From positions 124,001-188,000 of the forward strand of contig CAUYUJ010000002.1 of NCBI GenBank assembly GCA_963575745.1: DNA of 64,000 bases. Reading direction: 5' to 3'. Of this stretch, positions 16,378 to 62,531 are shown one piece after another. The notes below the pieces were generated by a model. The model ran no database searches. It saw nothing but the letters and a program-made list of their open reading frames with translations, and was not told the origin of the DNA. The stretch comes from Prorocentrum cordatum. Lineage: Eukaryota. The stretch's first letter is position 1; every line of letters begins with the position of its first letter. Position numbers and translations under genes: made by a program.

Positions 16378-17720
16378 CACTACTATTCCTATTCGTGGTA
16401 CCGCTGGTATCTTCCATCGTACACGCACTACACATATACATATAACCATGCACAAGCCATCGGTCCATTCCGCCGCCGTGCTTGGCTTGTGTGAGTGAAG
16501 CATCTTGGGCGTTCGCTTGGATTTATTGGGGTGCTTTTCGGGGGCCTCTTTGAAACTGTTTCGAAGCTTCCTGGGTGCAATGGTGGTGCCCCCTGGGGTC
16601 TCTTCAGGGCATCCTGGTGCCGTTTTCGGGCGCATTGGGGCGGGCGCAGGGCCTCTTAGGGCCTCTGGTGGTGGGGGGTGGAGGGTAGAATTTTCTGCTC
16701 GGGGCCCCCATCTTGGGCCCTTCTCGGGGCCGCCCTGGGGCTGTCTTGGGCGAGCCGGAACGCGGCGGAGCCGATGCACGTTGAGCGTTGATGCCTGCGA
16801 ACGGGCCAACGACACGCAAGCGCACGCCACCGCTTTGCCTGCAAATTTCGCCAGGGATGGGCAATTGCGCAGGCGGAGGGCGGGGTGAGTGGGGCGAGCG
16901 GGGCGGCGCGGGTGGATGTTGTAGGGGCATGGGGGCACGGGAAGGCGCGGCAATGTTCTGGGCGATTCGCCGCTCCATCCCTCCACACCGCCTTTTCCAC
17001 CCACCCGCGCCGCCGTTTTCGCCCTCTCCCAATCCGCCCCCCCCTCCGCGGCGACCCCTCCGACGAAATACGTGGGCAACGCGGCCCGTGCGCGGAAGCG
17101 TCGTATGCAGCGCGGGCCTGGTTGTCCAACTTGGCGCCGTCGATAAACAGCCTCCCAGGGATCACAGCGTCGGGGCCATGTTGCATGACCACTTCGTGCG
17201 TGTGGTAGTTGTCGCAAAGCAAGTGCAACTGGCCCCTGTGCAGCATGATCTCCGCCTCCTCGCTCCGCCACTTCCGCGCCAGCACCTCGTAGAAGGGCAC
17301 GGTCGGTACCAGCTCCCTCTTGGCAGAGCGGCCTTTCCGCGCGTTGACGGGCATCATAGTGTAGTGAAGGCAATGGCGACGAATATCGTTGCCACCTAAT
17401 ACTTTGTATACAGACCTCGATGAATTTCTGTCGTGCTGCAGGTCCCGCGCGAGATCTTCAACTCCAACTCCTTTTGATCTGGTGATCAGAAAGCATAATT
17501 TGACCAACACTTTCGCAGAGATCTCTCCAGAAAACCACAGCCCCAACAGGAGCTCGCGGAGCAGCCGAGGATACTCTGGCGCCTCACGCTCCGCGTGTTC
17601 CTTGGCAATGGAGCAGCCCAGTCTGCGGTCCGCCGCAGAGGCGGTGTAGCGTGCCGTTCTCAGAAGAGCGCGGCCAGCCTGCCTGAACTGCTTGAACGTA
17701 GGCCGTCGCTTCTCGCCCAT
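5618..17720 (-). CDS. CACTA/EnSpm-like (CMC superfamily) DDE transposase, 4 exons, ~780 aa
   Basis: Exons 17720-17118 (MGEKRR..GRLFIDGAKLDNQ, donor CAG|GC), 16480-16447 (HGGGMDRWLVH, donor G|GT), 7948-7272 (acceptor TTCAG|G; CRCGCRG..AADLDEMQKTFGLPDYRSSHGCLRC) and 6649-5618 (acceptor CAG|G; DSMHFADLG..KLKAGK..KFHAFARH..GNPAWSHNYRDESEN). Phases 0/1/0 join in frame. The motif order D..D, CxxC, DxxH, H(4)H, E matches CMC-type transposases. The exon 3 donor and the C-terminal end are tentative. Confidence 0.8.
7990..9715. repeat. Degenerate (ACT)n switching to (AGT)n at ~8460
   Basis: Read directly; lies inside transposase intron 2. Confidence 0.9.
9810..10800 (+). repeat. Diverged ~135-190 bp satellite, forward orientation
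   Basis: CCAGGCCAGCATGGCTGC-like cores at ~9911, 10097, 10256, 10435, 10572 and 10707, with the motif GGAAATCCAATCGGCCGCCGCTAAGG. Confidence 0.8.
10854..13479. mobile_element. Putative non-autonomous TIR element with TA flanks
   Basis: TA|TAGAGCCTGCAA (10854-10865) and TTGCAGGCTCTA|TA (13468-13479). Similarity continues inward (TGCGAG). AT-rich right part at 13020-13480. Confidence 0.55.
11690..14595 (-). repeat. Same satellite in reverse orientation (interrupted ~12750-13500)
   Basis: Reverse-complement cores GCAGCC..GCTGGCCTGGAAA at ~12266, 13632, 13966 and 14136. Confidence 0.8.
14680..16390. repeat. Degenerate (ACT)n microsatellite
   Basis: Read directly. Confidence 0.9.
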
Positions 17721-17751: not shown

Positions 17752-17772
17752 CTCGAGCCAAAATGGCTACGG
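17752..17772 (-). other. Dinoflagellate spliced-leader relic
   Basis: Minus strand reads CCGTAGCCATTTTGGCTCGAG against the DinoSL CCGTAGCCATTTTGGCTCAAG (20/21). It lies 31 nt upstream of the transposase ATG. Confidence 0.92.
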
Positions 17773-19321: not shown

Positions 19322-19484
19322 CGCCGCAGCGGGATGAGATTTGGCACGCCCGAAGGGCCTCGATCAACGGAGCCCCAGCGCCAAGCCACCGCGTGTCTGG
19401 CCCAGGGGGGCCAACGCGGACCCTTGCAAGGGCGAGGCCTCATCGAGGCCCTTCGGGCGCGCCAAATCCAATCTGGCTGCGGCG
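19322..19484. other. 43-bp imperfect inverted repeat (long hairpin)
   Basis: 19322-19364 CGCCGCAGCGGGATGAGATTTGGCACGCCCGAAGGGCCTCGAT pairs with 19442-19484. The 77-nt loop contains small stems. Confidence 0.85.
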
Positions 19485-19678: not shown

Positions 19679-22600
19679 TCACGAGGATGAGCTCGAAGAT
19701 GAATCCGAAGAAGACGACGATGAACTGTCCTCGCTCGATGGCGCGGCCCAGCCCCTCCTCCCTCCCTCCAGGTCCCTCCTCTCGCCTTCCTCCTCCCCCC
19801 CCTCCTCCTGCTCCCCATGCTCCTCCTCCTCTTCCTCCTCGTCCTCCTCCTCCTCCTCCTCCTCCTTCTCCTCCTCGTCCCCCTCCTCCTCGTCCTTCTC
19901 CTCCTTCTCCTCCTCCTCCTCCTCCTCCTCCTCCTCTATCGCCGTCTCTCATCTTCCTCCTCCTCCCTCCTCCTCCTCCTCCTCCTCCTCATCCTCCTCT
20001 TGCTCCTCCTCCTCCTCCTCCTCCTCCTCCTCCTCCTCTATCGCCGTCCCTCCGCTTCCTCCTCCTTTCGTCCTTTCCCCACCTCCTTCTCTCATCCTCC
20101 TCTTCCGTTGTGTTGCAATCGATTGGATTGCAATTGATTGAAGCGCAATTGTTAGGATTGCCATCGATCGGATTGCAATCATTTGGTTTGCGATCCGATC
20201 GATTGCAATCCACTCCGACCTCCGATTCTCGGACCTCTAGGGGTGGCATACCTGTTCCTCCTGCTCCTCCTGCTCCTCCTGCTCCTCCTCCTCCACGTCC
20301 TCCTTCTGCCTTATCCTCTTCCTCGTCATCCTCCTCGTTCTCCTCCTCCTCCGCCCGCGCTGGTCCTTGTGCTTGGCCTTCTTGGAGGTACGCTTGTGCT
20401 CGTCCGTCGTCGCCTCGATGTTCTTCTTGGGCGTCATCTTCGGTTTGCCTGCACTTTTGCACTTTGCCTTGCCTTTAGCTTTTGCCTTTGGCACAACCAC
20501 TGGCTCGTGATCATCAGACTCGGACTTGTCCTTCTTGCCTTTTTTCTTTTTGTCTTTCTTATCATTTCGGTCTTTCTTAGTCTTTTTGTCTTTCGATCCC
20601 TTTTTGTTTTTCTTGTCCTTTTTGCCCTTGGGCTTGCTCTCGCTCGACTCCGAGGCGTCCTTGCGCTTCTTCTTCTTCTTTCCCTTCTTGTCGCCGTCGT
20701 GGTCGTCGTTCTTTCCGTTTTTAGTCTTGTCGTTTTTCTTGTTATTCTTCTTGTCAGCGATGTCACCGCTGCTGTCGTCATGCTTGTCCTGCTTCGTCTT
20801 TTTATTGCCGCGCTTCTTCTTCTTGCTGTCGGCGTCCTTGTCGCTGTCGCTGCTGGAGAGGTCCTTTTTCTTTTTCTTCTTTTTTGTCGACTCCTCGTCG
20901 TCGGCCCAATCATCGCACCAGTCGCCGTCGTCCTGCCACTGCTCCTCTTCTTCCTCGCCAGCACAGTTGTCCTCGTCATCCTCGGCCTCGGTCGGCTTCA
21001 CCGTGCCGCCCTTCTCGATGCTGGCCTCCTTCCTCGTGCCATGCCGTTCGAGCTTCCGCGTGTAGTACACAACTCGCATCTGCTGCTTCTCGTCGTACTT
21101 CTGGAGGCCGTGTTTCTTGGCGAACTCCATATACGCTGTGGACGCCTCCTCCGACTTCAGCCTGTCCTGCAACTGGTGCTGGTTGAGCCACTCACCCTCT
21201 GTCTCCGTCTCCTGCCTGTGGCGCGGCCGGAACGCCAGGACCGACCGCCCCCCCCAGAGGCCATCTTAGGCCCTCTAAGGGCCCAAGATGGGCCCTCAAG
21301 GTCCTCTCAGGGCCTCTTGGGCCCTCTAAGGCTTCTTGGGGAGACAGGGGGTGCCCTCCGAGGCCTCCTAGGCCTCGTGTGCCCTCTGTTAACTACCTTG
21401 GGCCATCCGAAGCCTCTGAGGCATCTTGGGAGGAGAGGGGGGCCCTCCGAGGCATCTTGGGCCCCTTGGGCCCTTAGAATAATTATCTTCGGCCCTCTGA
21501 GGCCTCCGAGGCATCTTGGGAGAAGAGGGGGCCCTCCGAGGCCTCCGAGGCTCCTCAGGGGGGGAGAGGGTGGCCCTCCGAACCCGATGCATTCGAGCCC
21601 CCATTGGGTCACGGCCTTGGAGGGCCTCTCGGATGGCCCAGCGATCCCCAAATCTATTTCCCCCATCCGTGACGGGGCGGTCGGGCTTGGTATCCCAGCC
21701 GAGGTACCACATGCTCTTCCTCGCTTTGAGGACAGTCCCAGCAGCGTTGAAGTCCCTGTCGCACTGGAGCCACACCGCACGCAGCTGCGCTTTCACCTAG
21801 GAAAAGACAACATCACCATGCCCCTCCTTCATGCACCTCATCCTCCCCTTTCCTCACGTCCTCCTCCGTCTCTTCCTCCTCTTCCTCTTCCTCCTCCTCT
21901 TCCTCCTCCTCCTTCTCCTACTCCTACTCCTAATCCTAACCCTACTCCTAATCCTACTCCACCACCTCCTCCTCCCTCTCCTCCTCCTGCTCCTCCTCTT
22001 CCTCCCTTGCCTCCTCCTCCTCCTCCTCCGACTCCTCCTGAACCTCCTCCTCCTCCTCCTCCTCCGTGCCCCATCCTCGTCGTCGCCCTCCTCCTCCTCC
22101 TCCTCCTACTCCTGCCTGGTCAACATGTGGTCTTGAGATTTGTGTCGCTACCCGTTGTTCCTCCATCTCCTCGTCCTCGTCCTCGTCCTCCTCCTCGTCC
22201 TCCTCGTCCTCCTCTTCCTCCTCATCTCCCTCCTCCTCCTCACTATCCTTCTCCTCCTCCTCCTCCTCCTCCCTCCTCCTCCTCTTCCTCCTTCTCCTCC
22301 TCTTTCGACGCCTCCTCCTCATCCACGAGGAAGAAGAGGAGGGGAAGGATGGGGTGGAGGAGGAGGAGGAGGAGGAAGAGAATGAGGAGGAGGAGGGGGA
22401 TGCGAAGGAGGAGGAGCAGGAGGAGGAGGCGCAGGAGGAGGAGGAGGGGGAGAACGTTCGGCCCCGACAAACCGTCATGCTGTGCGTGCTGGTGTACTTC
22501 TTGATGAACTCCTTGGCCTCGTCCTCTAGGATTTCGCCGCCGTTCTCGGCCAGGTCCTTGGCGGCCTTGACGTGCCTGCTGAACATGCGGTTCGCGCTGG

Positions 22601-39356: not shown

Positions 39357-39473
39357 AAACTGCACTGAAATGGGCCTAGCTGGCGGGCGGGCGACGAGCG
39401 GGGCGGCGCGGCGAGCGGGGCGGCGCGGCGAGCGGGGCGGCACTCTAACCACATCTTCTGAACTACACCCCCT

Positions 39474-39595
39474 CGTTCGTTATCATCACCATCGCTACCC
39501 TGGTTTCGGCATTGCGATCGCGACGCCCCAGCCGCGTCGGGACGTCGCAATCGCAACGCCGTAAACCAGGGTACCGATGACGATGATGACGAACG
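39474..39595 (-). other. ~52-bp imperfect inverted repeat (pre-miRNA-sized hairpin)
   Basis: CGTTCGTTATCATCACCATCGCTACCCTGGTTTCGGCATTGCGATCGCGACG pairs with 39543-39595. Confidence 0.85.
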
Positions 39596-40527
39596 CGGAC
39601 GGGGCTCAAAAGGCGTCAACGTCTCTGCACTGATGCTTTCGTCGTGAGCATCAGCAGCATCATCGGCAACATCATCATACTCATCATCGTCATCACCATC
39701 GCCATCCGCATCACCATCGCCATCGTCATCATCACCACCAACATCATTCGTACCATGATCAGCAGCAGTACCATTATCATCACCGTCAGCACTATCATCA
39801 TCGTCATCATCATCGTCGTCGCCGCCGTTGTCGTCGTCGTTATTGTTACCACTATTAGTATCATCATTATCATTATTGTCAGTATCACCATCATCATCAT
39901 GATCCGCATCATCAGCAGCACCATCAACATCGTCATCTTCATCAACATCATCATTGTCATCAACATCATCAGCATCAGCATCAGCGTCATCATCATCACC
40001 ATCATCATCACCATCATCATCATCATCAGCATCATCATCATCATCATCCTCATCATCATCAGCATCATCATCACCAGCACCGTCATCAACAACGTCGCCA
40101 TCACCATCACCATCACCATAGGGCCTGCGATGAATGCTGGACTCTAGAGGTCTGAAGGTGGAGAAGAAGGATAGGTGATCAAGGACGGGAACTCGGAAGG
40201 ATGGGGGCGGACGGGTGAGTAAGGAGGAGGAGGCGGTGAGAATTGCACACCTTCTTAGGAGCTCCTCCTCCTCCTCCTCCTCCTCCGCCGTTCCTTCCGC
40301 CTCCTCATCCAGCTCATCCTTCTCCTCCGTTTCTTCCTCCGCCTCCTCCTCCACACCTCCTCCCCATCCCTTTCCACCTCCGATGATCCCTCCTCCTCCT
40401 CCTCCTCCTCCGCCTCCTCCTCCGTCCCCTCCTCTTTCTCCTCCTCCACCTCCATCTCCACCTACACCTCCTCACCATCAGCATCCTCATATTCCTTTCC
40501 CTCTTGGAGGTCTGGCCAGCCTGACAC

Positions 40528-42939: not shown

Positions 42940-43606
42940 AGGAGGAGGAGGAGCAGGGGGAGGAGGAGGAGGAGGAGGAGGAGGAGGAGGAGGAGGAGGA
43001 GGAGGAGAAGGAAGAGGAGGGGGAGGAGGATCAGGAGAAAGAGGAGGAGGAGGAGGAGGAGGAGGAGGAGGAGGAAGGTGAGGAAGAGGAGGAGGAGGAA
43101 GAGGAGGAGGAGGAGGAGGAGGAGGAGGGCAGCCTCCTTCTCCTTCGCCTTGGGGTCCACCGCCTCCTCGAACTTCATCCCCTTGTGGAGCCAGCGGTCG
43201 CCGTCGTCCCAGACGAAAACCGCAGCCCCGCTCGCCGCCCTGATGACGCCCACCGCCGCGAACGAGTCGCACTTGCGGTAGGCCCACGACTGCAGCACCA
43301 CGAACTCGCAGTCGTCGTCGTCGTCGCCGAGCTTCTTGTCCTCCAGCGGCGCAGCTGGGGGCGCCGCGGCGCCGTCCGTCAGCGGCTGGGCGGCGGGCGC
43401 AACGACGGGCGCCGCGGTGTCGTGCGTCGGGGGCTCTTCGCTGCCTCGACGACGGCGACGATGGCGACGACGACGCCGACGACAAGGGCGGCTACATCGT
43501 TGAGGTTCGCAGGCCGACGACCGACGATCGACGATCGACAAAGGACGACGGCGGCGACCGACGACGGAAATCGACGACGACGACGGCTACGACCACGACA
43601 AAAGAC

Positions 43607-43638
<32 letters not shown>

Positions 43639-44054
43639 CGAGGGCGACGATGACCGATCACGACGGCGACGACTGCGGCGATCGACGACGTCGACGACGA
43701 CGAACACGACGAACACGACGACCACGACGAAAACGACGACGACGATGCCGACCACGCTGACGACGACGACGACGGCGACGTCGACGACGATGACGGCGAC
43801 GACGACGACGGCGGCGACCACGACGACGCCGACGACGACGACGCTCCACCGTCGTCGCTCAGGAAGCTGTCGTCGCCGTCGCTGTCGGCCCACATGGCCG
43901 TGAGCTCCTTGTAGACCTTGGCCGAGCGCGGCGTTCTCGAAGCCTTCGGTCGTGGCCTCGAGGCGCCCTCGCCGTGCTCCATCTTCCGCTGGAGCGAGCT
44001 CGGCACCGTGTACCCCAGCCTTGACGTTGGTTGGCGCGGCATCGAGAGGCACAT
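40528..44054 (-). CDS. Unknown protein (gene B), 5 exons, ~596 aa, with internal repeats
   Basis: Exons 44054(or 44042)-43850 (G|GT), 43444-43134 (..CEFVVLQSWAYRKC..FVWDDGDRWLHKG; GAG|GC), 42871-42818 (AAAAKKAEEAQEAKKAAK; AAG|GC), 42293-41886 (GKGRGKAKR x3; AAG|GC) and 41340-40528 (VGVSPRPKIVGWEVYIK..; 11-aa GDGIGHEKGQE repeats). All acceptors are AG|G, phases are consistent and codons are GC3-rich. Confidence 0.8.
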
Positions 44055-44307
44055 GAGGGATTGCGAGGAGGAAGACGGCGCGACAGTAGCCAGAGGAAAC
44101 TTCGCCAGTCTAGCTCGAACATCCCTCGCCCTCAGGGCAACGGATTTCGAGCTAGGCTAGCTTGACTTCCTCTAGCTACTGTCGCGCAATCCTCTGCATC
44201 GCCGTCCCGCAGGGCTTCGAGGAAGGCGAGGAGGTCGAGGGGTGGAGGCGAGGGCGGAGGCGAAGAGGACAGCGGAGGTCGCCTCTTGATGCGGCGCCAG
44301 CCAGCCA
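44024..44307. other. Large imperfect palindrome centred at 44132/44133
   Basis: GCGCGACAGTAGC.AGAGGAA (44078-44098) pairs with 44167-44187. CTAGCTCGAA (44110-44119) pairs with TTCGAGCTAG (44146-44155). Outer arms are ~44027-44050 and 44281-44305. Confidence 0.9.
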
Positions 44308-44632
44308 CCATTGTCTGCAGCTTGCTGGCCTCCGCGCAGACCGATGGGCCGTTCAGGGCGGGCAGCACCTAGGACGGATGGGGGGGATGGCTATTCCTTA
44401 TTCGTCTCCTCCTCCGCTTCCTCCTCCTCCTCCTCCTCCCCTCCTCATCCGCCTCATCCTCTTCCTCCTCCTCATCCTCCTCCTCCTCATCCTCCCCCTC
44501 CTCCTCCTCGCATCCTCCTTCTCCTCTTCCTCGTCCTCCTCCTCCTCCTCCTCCTCCTCCTCTCCTCCTCCTCCCCTCTCCCCCCCCTCCTCCTCCTCCT
44601 CCTCCTCCTCCTCCTCCTCCCTCCTCCTCCTC

Positions 44633-44664
<32 letters not shown>

Positions 44665-45331
44665 ATCCTCGCCACCTCTTCATCTCCTATCCACCACCCC
44701 ATCGCAGTCATCATCCTCCACATCCTCGTCGCATTCCTCCTGCTCCTCCTCCTCCTCCTTCTCCTCCTCCTTCTCTTCCTCCTCCTCTCCTCCTCCTCCT
44801 CCTCCTCCTCCGCGGCCTTATCACCCTCATTGGTCATCGTCCTCCTCCACCTCTTCCTAGCGCCTCCTCCTCCTCCTCCTCCTCCTCCTCCTATGTGTGT
44901 TTCTCCCCTGCTCCCCCTCCCCTACTCCGTCTGCTCCCCTCCTCGTCCTCCTCCTCGTCGTCCTCATCCTTCTCCTCCTCCATCTGTGCACCTCGTGGAC
45001 GGCGCACTCGTAGTCGGCGATGTTCCACATCAGCGAGGGCGACGCGGCCTCCAGATGCTTGACCGCGCGCCACCACCCCGAGGACTCCAGGAACTCGCAG
45101 AGCCCCCCTCATATGAGACAAACTCGGACCGAATCCGACGCTCCATTCATTACCCACCGCCGCCTCCACAACGGAGGGCGGCGGTGGGCGATGAAGGACA
45201 CGTTGGGTTCTGCTGAGTTTTCTCATCTGGCCTATCTTCTTGCCCTGCTGCGTCCAGTCGCACAGCGGCGTCTTGTGCTGCGGCGGCGCGAGGCGCAGCG
45301 CCGCGACGACGTCCGCGACGTCGCCGCCCAT
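44132..45331 (-). CDS. Unknown small protein (gene A), 3-4 exons, ~128-150 aa
   Basis: Exons 45331-45232 (MGGDVADVVAALRL..GKKI, G|GC), 45107-44992 (GLCEFLESSGWWRAVKHLE..AVHE|GT) and 44368-44132 (TAG|VLPALNG..). A 66-nt in-frame GA-AG intron at 44280-44215 is possible. Phases are consistent. Confidence 0.7.
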
Positions 45332-45964: not shown

Positions 45965-46153
45965 GGATATTGATGGTGATGATGGTGAGGATGAGGATGA
46001 TGATGGGGATGATGACGATGATGATGCTGATGCTGATGATGCTGATGATGCTGCTGGCGATCGAAAATTGTGATGACGATGTTGATGATGCTGATGATGC
46101 TGCCGATGATGATGAGGATGAAGCGAAGTGGTATGGGCACCACCCATCGTCAC

Positions 46154-46227
<74 letters not shown>

Positions 46228-60830: not shown

Positions 60831-61188
60831 CACAGGCGCTGCAGGAACGGGCCCTGCGGCGCCGGTGTCGCCGACGACGCCGAGAGGCCCTGGAGCGCCG
60901 GACGGGCAGGGCAGCGCCCGCTGGCAGCGGCGACGCCGAGGTCGCCTGCGAAGCCGAGGTCCAGGGCGCCACGGCGGCAACGCGCTGCCTGGCCCGGGGC
61001 GGCGGCCGGCGTCAGGGAAGTGGTCGCGTGAGCTAACTCAGCGGTTGAATGGGGTCACCGCTGTCGCCGCGAGATGTGACCCGGCCGCGCGCGCAGCCCG
61101 GGCGACAACCGCATTGCGCGTTGGCGAATCCGGCGACGCGGCCAGAAAAAAATATAAGAAAACAGTAGTGGTAGTAGTGGTAGTAGTG

Positions 61189-61251
<63 letters not shown>

Positions 61252-61494
61252 CTAGTAGTAGTAGTAGTGGTGGTAGTAGTAGTACTAGTACTAGTACTAG
61301 TACTAGTACTAGTACTAGTACTAGTACTAGTACTAGTAGTAGTACTAGTACTAGTTGTAGTCGTAGTCGTAGTCGTAGTCGTAGTCGTCGTCGTAGTAGT
61401 CATAGTCGTAGTCGTCGTCGTAGTCGCAGTCGTAGTCGTCGTCGTAGTCGTAGGAGGTAGCAGCAGTAGTCGTAGTATTTGTTGTCGTAGTAGC

Positions 61495-61907: not shown

Positions 61908-62531
61908 TAGTAGTAGTAGTAGTAGTAGTAGTTGTAGTAGAAGTGGTAGTGGCGCAGGCGCTGCAGGAGCGGGCCCTGCGGCGCCGGTGTCGCCGACGAC
62001 GCCGAGAGGCCCTGGGGCGCCGGGCCGGCGGAGCAGCGCCCGCTGGCAGCGGCGACGCCGAGGTCGCCGGCGAAGCCGAGGTCCAGGGCGCCGTCGGCGG
62101 CGAGGCGCTGCAGGCGCGGGCTTTGCGGCGCCGGCGTCGCCGACGACGCCGAGAGGCCCTGGAGCGCCGGACGGGCAGGGCAGCGCCCGCTGGCAGCGGC
62201 GACGCCGAGGTCGCCGGCGAAGCCGAGGTCCAGGGCGCCGGCGGCGGCAAGGCCATGCCTGGCCCGGGGCGGCGGCCGGCGTCAGGGAAGCGGTTGCGCG
62301 AGCTAATTAATTTCAACTCAGTGGTTGAATGGGGCCGCCGCTGTCGCCGCGAGATGTGACCCGGCCGCGCGCGCAGCCCGGGCGACAACCGCGCCGCGCG
62401 GCGCGCTGGCGAATCTGGCGACGCGGCCAGAAAAATTTGAAGAAATAGTAGTAGTGGTAGTAGTAGTAGTAGTCGTAGTAGTGGTAGTAGTCGTAGTAGT
62501 GGTAGTAGTAGTCGTAGTAGTAGTAGTAGTC

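Follow-up and report, generated by a model that had tools for sequence, protein, structure and literature searches.

Coding-like sequence and candidate introns on the minus strand

The locus lies in a 64,000-nt stretch of Prorocentrum cordatum DNA, referred to here as the window, whose sequence is G+C-rich and contains much low-complexity DNA. The share of codons with G or C in third position divides the locus very sharply into two kinds of sequence, and by this measure four minus-strand stretches are coding-like: E1 (45244-45331), which begins at the ATG at 45331 and has third-position G+C of 29/29; E2 (44992-45107), with 38/39; EX (44283-44368), with 25/28 and with a pyrimidine tract and TAG|G upstream; and EY (43851-44019), with 53/57, whose frame continues open leftwards into a Ser-rich (TCG)n stretch. 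An earlier note on this DNA had assigned the frame of EX to one gene, gene A, and the frame of EY to a second, gene B. Three candidate introns separate the four stretches: 136 nt between E1 and E2 (45108-45243; GC...AG|G), 623 nt between E2 and EX (44369-44991; GT...AG|G), consisting mostly of an (AGG)n array and with the direct repeat AGGTGC at both junctions, and 263 nt between EX and EY (44020-44282; GC...AG|G), with AGGC at both junctions. The frame is kept across all three, whose ends are of the type G[CT]...AG|G. E1, E2, EX and EY, joined in a script, give 153 codons with no stop and third-position G+C of 145/153, a calibration that is partly circular, being drawn from the same locus. 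The AGGTGC at the two junctions of the 623-nt candidate intron resembles a target-site duplication of the introner type.

According to Table 2 of PMC10666404, intron donors in P. cordatum are GC in 51.4%, GA in 23.8% and GT in 24.7% of cases, and AG|G acceptors account for 79.7% of introns. The gap between EX and EY has the features of a spliceosomal intron, with a donor of the G[T/C/A] type, an AG|G acceptor, coding-like sequence on both sides and the EX frame joined to the EY frame. Most likely, gene A and gene B of the earlier note would be neighbouring exons of a single gene, and the gap a 263-nt GC...AG|G candidate intron; both the splicing and the unity of the gene we infer from composition and junctions. 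There are five in-frame donors within 30 nt of 44282 (counted by eye), and the open joined frame is therefore weak evidence.

Database searches gave no homologue. The gene A ORF had no protein match among similar-length proteins (3 candidates) or longer ones (426 candidates), the ORF of the downstream exon had none among 8000 longer candidate proteins, and Pfam gave nothing above the cut-off for five ORFs. A metagenome scan by protein returned 594 pattern matches, none of which was confirmed. No predicted protein in large libraries contains EX, EY or the downstream exon, so the gene is unconfirmed. An exhaustive protein search of the representative library with the gene B ORF gave two matches, P0001 and P0002, which are translations of tandem repeats (about 94 and 52 residues). 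In both, the low E-value arises from summing 7-8 copies of one weak match of 22-30 bits, with single stretches reaching at most 29.6 bits, and the two were set aside as homologues of gene B, their scores being treated as chance and repeat-derived.

These searches bear on a reading in which nothing is expressed, the coding-like pieces being what is left, among repeats, of a gene that decayed or was retro-copied, and the palindrome described below being neutral debris. Neither the three word-index protein searches nor the exhaustive one gave a homologue of any piece, which is consistent with it, as are the empty Pfam result and the dominance of the window by low-complexity arrays and repeats; so is an in-frame TAG further down the EY frame. 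However, the third-position G+C of the joined exons, the intact splice-like boundaries and the ATG-initiated first exon are features that would decay in a dead gene, and we regard this reading as quite improbable. The TAG, at 43587-43589 (minus strand), breaks an otherwise continuous frame that runs from the Ser-rich stretch after EY to a strongly coding-like exon at about 43130-43325 (minus strand; third-position G+C 62/65), and reflects either an unrecognised intron or a broken gene.

The palindrome centred on 44133

Within the EX/EY gap lies an imperfect inverted repeat centred on 44133. The earlier note gave its bounds as 44024-44307; the similarity ends at 44026 and 44305. The left arm (44026-44133) is pyrimidine-rich on the minus strand and stops 4 nt short of the candidate acceptor AG. 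The right arm comprises an inner part (44133-44214), with G+C of 0.60 and third-position G+C of 11/26 in the gene A frame, and an outer part (44281-44305), which overlaps the final 23 nt of EX and the candidate GC donor at 44281-44282; the two parts are split by 66 extra bases at 44215-44280. At the centre is a perfect 5+1+5 mini-palindrome, GCCCT-C-AGGGC (44128-44138), which includes the minus-strand TGA at 44132-44134 that the earlier note took as the stop of gene A. The ATGs proposed there as starts of gene B, at 44052-44054 and 44040-44042, are present on the minus strand within the left arm as claimed, and a further ATG of the same frame lies outside it at 43980-43982. The two 31-residue peptides quoted for the arms were reproduced letter for letter.

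When the left side was aligned locally, with gaps allowed, to the right side in reverse complement, 44028-44139 aligned and the left arm received a single long gap of 66 nt. With 44215-44280 set aside, 81/109 aligned columns match, 5 columns being gaps, and an ungapped block of 93 nt between the arms matches at 70/93. The local score of the sequence against its own reverse complement is 130.6, compared with a mean of 36.0 (sd 8.8) and a maximum of 72.2 in 200 dinucleotide shuffles, which confirms the inverted copy centred at the supposed stop of gene A. The palindrome is genuine, old and imperfect, with about 25% divergence between its arms. An extension outwards to 43954 and 44359, hinted at by tblastn, was rejected: the flanks score 7.0 against a shuffle mean of 8.9, and 488/500 shuffles did at least as well. 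Immediately beside the palindrome, the minus strand reads GGTG on one side and GTCA on the other, which do not match.

The palindrome is a single-copy feature of the window. A 21-mer common to both arms occurs in the 64 kb at these two places only (0.01 expected) and has no match in metagenome contigs, and none of five tested palindromes, the focal one included, has a second copy in the window. Nine sequencing runs are listed for 43840-44400, none of them on record as RNA, and three contain 0.24-0.32 of the words of that interval. From four runs, three contigs of 171-180 nt are identical to the window (43851-44021, 44219-44396 and 44248-44400) and the fourth is a 42-nt piece with 6 differences; the interval 44022-44218 lies outside all four, and they contain no joints.

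Coding signal in the arms

The earlier note had the mirror arm copying the 3' end of gene A. This applies to the last 23-25 nt of the coding-like exon, which the arm takes in; the remainder looks non-coding. Over 44282-44135, the supposed tail of gene A, third-position G+C is 26/48 compared with 145/153 in the neighbouring coding-like exons, so the tail is non-coding in appearance, and the central TGA probably does not mark the end of a gene. For the gene B frame, the count is 20/34 ahead of the ATG at 44054 and 8/11 from that ATG to 44020, whereas a clean signal begins at 44019, directly after AG|G; gene B therefore probably does not start in the arm. The inner arms, with G+C of 0.60, are close in this respect to the other two candidate introns (0.57 and 0.63). 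In a single gene with the candidate intron, the central TGA and the left-arm ATGs would be intronic.

The frames themselves are more favourable to two genes, an arrangement in which gene A codes as far as the central TGA, gene B takes its ATG from an inverted copy that arose from a spliced template or predated the gain of an intron, and the 66 nt are a GA...AG intron. From 44368 the gene A frame meets no stop until the TGA, passing through the 66 nt on the way, so that a short gene could end there, and the open frame into EY has its first ATG at 44054. The 23 differences in the 93-nt block fall at codon positions 1, 2 and 3 in numbers of 7, 5 and 11 in the frame of the earlier note. Codons that differ only synonymously number 8 in this frame, compared with 3.9 expected (P = 0.03 before correction for three frames), and 3 in each of the other two; amino-acid identity between the arms is 20/31, compared with 17.0 expected (P = 0.08). 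The mild synonymous excess hints at some coding constraint on the arms, and on account of this signal the two-gene arrangement stays alive, though as an improbable reading given the composition of the supposed gene A tail and of the sequence between 44054 and 44020.

A copy of a spliced transcript would be harder still to accommodate. The inverted copy begins exactly at the stop codon and lacks a 3' UTR, a poly(A) tract and any spliced-leader relic, which makes an RNA template unlikely; neither arm has an A-run at its end, as a processed retro-copy might, and nothing indicates a template of RNA. That the left arm was copied from one appears extremely unlikely. The interpretation in the earlier note is thus partly supported: the palindrome and its landmarks are as described, and the spliced template and the seeding of a gene by the copy are not supported.

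The 66-nt segment

The extra piece at 44215-44280 is found in the right arm only and, read on the minus strand, has the composition C36 T15 G10 A5 (77% pyrimidine). It begins with GA and ends with AG as the earlier note stated, this placement being one of two equally good gap positions. Tandem Repeats Finder reports two weak arrays in it, of period 9 and 12 with 2.6 copies each, whose scores of 32 and 45 are under the default threshold of 50, and the piece matches other low-complexity sites of the window in 21 short stretches, compared with 4 for an equally long arm control. A copy of the piece from either arm, direct or inverted, was considered and rejected, the observed score being reached by 181, 89, 23 and 168 of 500 shuffles.

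The proposal that the 66 nt are an intron holds as far as the GA...AG ends. Framing of the type G[ACT]...AG or GA...AG is found by chance in 1.3-2.8% of 66-mers here, per placement, and two placements are equally good; the framing is suggestive of an intron, though not strongly so. The low rate per placement nevertheless counts towards two genes, as do the length, a multiple of three, and the frequency of GA donors in the species cited above. On the other side, the AG is followed by C rather than by the G of most P. cordatum acceptors, and the piece is low-complexity and weakly tandem-repetitive, like many arrays in the window. It has no direct or inverted end repeats, those of the introner type included, nor does it have coding exons on both sides, third-position G+C being 25/28 upstream, 15/22 within it and 11/26 downstream. 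That it is spliced out on its own is very doubtful. In the single-gene model, the piece stands directly after the donor dinucleotide, inside the candidate intron and not between two exons, and we read it as a probable gain of low-complexity sequence in the right arm or a loss from the left.

Predicted folding of the transcript

As the earlier note proposed, a transcript across the palindrome is predicted to form a long hairpin. Minus-strand RNA from 44312 to 44020 has a predicted minimum free energy of -150 kcal/mol, compared with -104.5 +/- 5.1 for shuffled sequences (z -9.0; 0/200 as stable), and the 66 nt form a bulge beside the donor in the predicted fold. The candidate intron alone gives -119.7 kcal/mol (z -6.8). 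A loose RNAfold scan flagged 73 windows and is too unspecific for counting hairpins. According to the model, the primary transcript should fold into a long imperfect hairpin in which the end of EX is paired with the pyrimidine tract upstream of the acceptor, and this hairpin should loop out nearly the whole candidate intron, as in the introner introns of dinoflagellates.

No Rfam family matches the 64 kb at its gathering score. At E-values up to 5, the interval 43700-44500 has 22 matches, the best being MIR8622 with 43.8 bits compared with a threshold of 197, and all of these sub-threshold matches are of a generic long-hairpin kind, to families of long plant MIR hairpins only. In a model for plant MIR genes, young hairpin-RNA and microRNA genes are born by inverted duplication of a segment of their target gene. 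The focal hairpin resembles such young MIR genes in that its arms derive from the gene's own sequence, 23 nt of exon included, and in the plant families to which it is weakly matched; it differs from MIR genes in scores far below the Rfam thresholds and in its probable position within an intron of the same gene.

Origin of the palindrome

The explanation we prefer, and to which we would give an even chance of being correct, is an old local fold-back duplication across an exon/intron junction, inside the hairpin-forming candidate intron of one dinoflagellate gene. The duplication, of about 108 bp, would have taken place in the non-coding gap between EX (44368-44283) and EY (44019 leftwards). 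The DNA copied would have crossed the exon/intron junction, taking in the donor with 23 exonic nt on one side and about 85 intronic nt on the other, and the copy would have been placed in reverse directly beside its source. A pre-existing short inverted repeat, the GCCCT/AGGGC at the centre, would be the likely point of fold-back or template switching. The 66-nt pyrimidine-rich low-complexity piece may have been gained later, after the donor dinucleotide in the right arm, or lost from the left arm; this order of events is one that the alignment suggests.

Fold-back (snap-back) inverted duplications form at a short inverted repeat after a break or at a stalled fork, and are usually described at the kilobase scale in gene amplification. 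The focal palindrome is like them in that its arms abut with no spacer, its centre is a short perfect inverted repeat, and it is a single local copy, with no further copies in the 64 kb. The copy also spans whatever adjoined the centre, regardless of the exon/intron border. It is unlike the usual cases in being 108 bp long and old, and the mechanism is not one that can be demonstrated from a single sequence. As for the processed (retro-copied) gene fragments of dinoflagellates, which carry spliced-leader relics, the likeness lies in the idea of the earlier note that one arm lacks the GA...AG-bounded segment; unlike processed retro-copies, however, the focal copy contains intron sequence under the best gene model.

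An origin by insertion is another possibility. In this case the palindrome would be a small non-autonomous, MITE-like introner element whose insertion made the intron. Introner elements are described in PMC7789003 as having inverted repeats of 8-20 nt at both intron ends and direct repeats of 3-5 nt over the junctions, and as often forming hairpins that join exon boundaries; the supplement of PMC10666404 gives them as 2.4% of P. cordatum introns. A preprint on Polarella (10.1101/2020.10.14.339549) describes some introner classes that take both splice sites from an AGGH target duplication. Elements with inverted and short direct repeats at intron ends are reported for dinoflagellates, P. cordatum included (PMC10666404, PMC7789003), and the AGGC at both focal junctions is like the Polarella duplications (10.1101/2020.10.14.339549). 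Also consistent with insertion is a second palindromic candidate intron of this gene, whose palindrome nearly coincides with its candidate splice sites.

Several features of the focal case fit this less well. The AGGC is in register at donor and acceptor as a direct repeat, but three of its four letters are the general AG|G consensus, which is expected at junctions anyway. The right arm enters the coding-like exon by 23 nt and includes the donor, so that the palindrome does not coincide with the AGGC-bounded unit, and a target-site duplication directly beside terminal inverted repeats, as in MITEs and foldback transposons, is absent at the palindrome ends. The two terminal 30-nt segments of the candidate intron (44282-44020) share an inverted repeat of at most 3 nt exact, or 5 nt with one mismatch. 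No other copy was found in the window, and the arm 21-mer is unmatched in metagenome contigs, as noted above. Insertion of an introner element is accordingly rated unlikely, though it is the strongest of the rival accounts. A local duplication at the central repeat, by fold-back or template switching, better accounts for an arm that crosses the exon/intron border, and the non-matching flanks and lack of another copy in the 64 kb likewise favour a local origin.

The similarities to introner elements of Amoebophrya, Polarella, Symbiodiniaceae and P. cordatum are nevertheless considerable. The gap between the exons is of intron size and is filled by self-complementary sequence, whose inverted repeat stops a few nt short of the 3' AG; AGGC stands over both junctions, the donor is not GT, and a predicted hairpin joins the exon ends. 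Unlike in introner elements, the 5' arm is partly in the exon, the arms are about 108 nt rather than 8-20 nt, no family of copies was found in the 64-kb window or in metagenome contigs, and the candidate intron has non-complementary ends, its 5' end being taken up by the 66-nt piece.

If the gap is an intron, it is one more hairpin intron of the type already reported in dinoflagellates. It would have a modest extra value: the arm that crosses into the exon and the lack of another copy in the 64 kb would point to local fold-back, and not transposon insertion, as one route to such introns. A more general caution is that, where an open frame enters a palindrome, the centre can be mistaken for the end of a gene. 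A further-reaching version of the local fold-back origin, and a quite unlikely one, is that the fold-back copied the exon/intron junction into the gene's own intron, so that every primary transcript would carry a hairpin of about 108 bp with the exon end and 5' splice site paired to the tract before the 3' splice site. Such a hairpin could gate splicing or yield small RNAs against its own exon, and local fold-back would stand alongside transposition as a source of hairpin introns.

Other palindromes and repeats in the window

The second palindromic candidate intron lies about 900 nt upstream of the focal one. Its palindrome (45229-45110; 120 nt) occupies most of the candidate 136-nt intron between E1 and E2, ends 1 nt before the acceptor AG and is unrelated in sequence to the focal palindrome. 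The arms match at 94/115 columns, with 10 gap columns, and the predicted minimum free energy is -67.8 kcal/mol, compared with -39.8 +/- 3.3 for shuffled sequences (z -8.4; 0/200 as stable). The terminal 30-nt segments of this candidate intron (45243-45108) share at most an inverted repeat of 9 nt, with one mismatch. The stretch at 43398-43504, considered as a third hairpin intron, was rejected as (GTC)n/(GAC)n low complexity.

Further complex palindromes of 140-160 nt are found at 39467-39605, 19326-19480 and 16882-17040; these are single-copy in the window, mutually unrelated and not clearly flanked by coding-like sequence on both sides. When 10 hairpin candidates were compared all against all, one pair only was similar. 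The hairpin-forming stretches at 60975-61120 and 62242-62400 are 84% identical over 192 nt and represent a repeated element. Trinucleotide arrays that switch strand in mid-array, for example from (CGA)n to (GTC)n, are found at 43756-43889, 61189-61353, 46070-46201 and 22166-22453, and give low-complexity palindromes. These arrays suggest that local strand-switching during copying is frequent in this DNA.

A candidate spliced-leader relic before the acceptor at 44020 matches at about 14/22 positions by eye and was set aside as unconvincing. The window has a single 21-mer resembling the dinoflagellate spliced leader, with one mismatch to it, at 17752-17772 (minus strand), where 0 such matches are expected by chance; it would belong either to a spliced-leader RNA gene or to a retro-copied gene that kept a relic of the leader.
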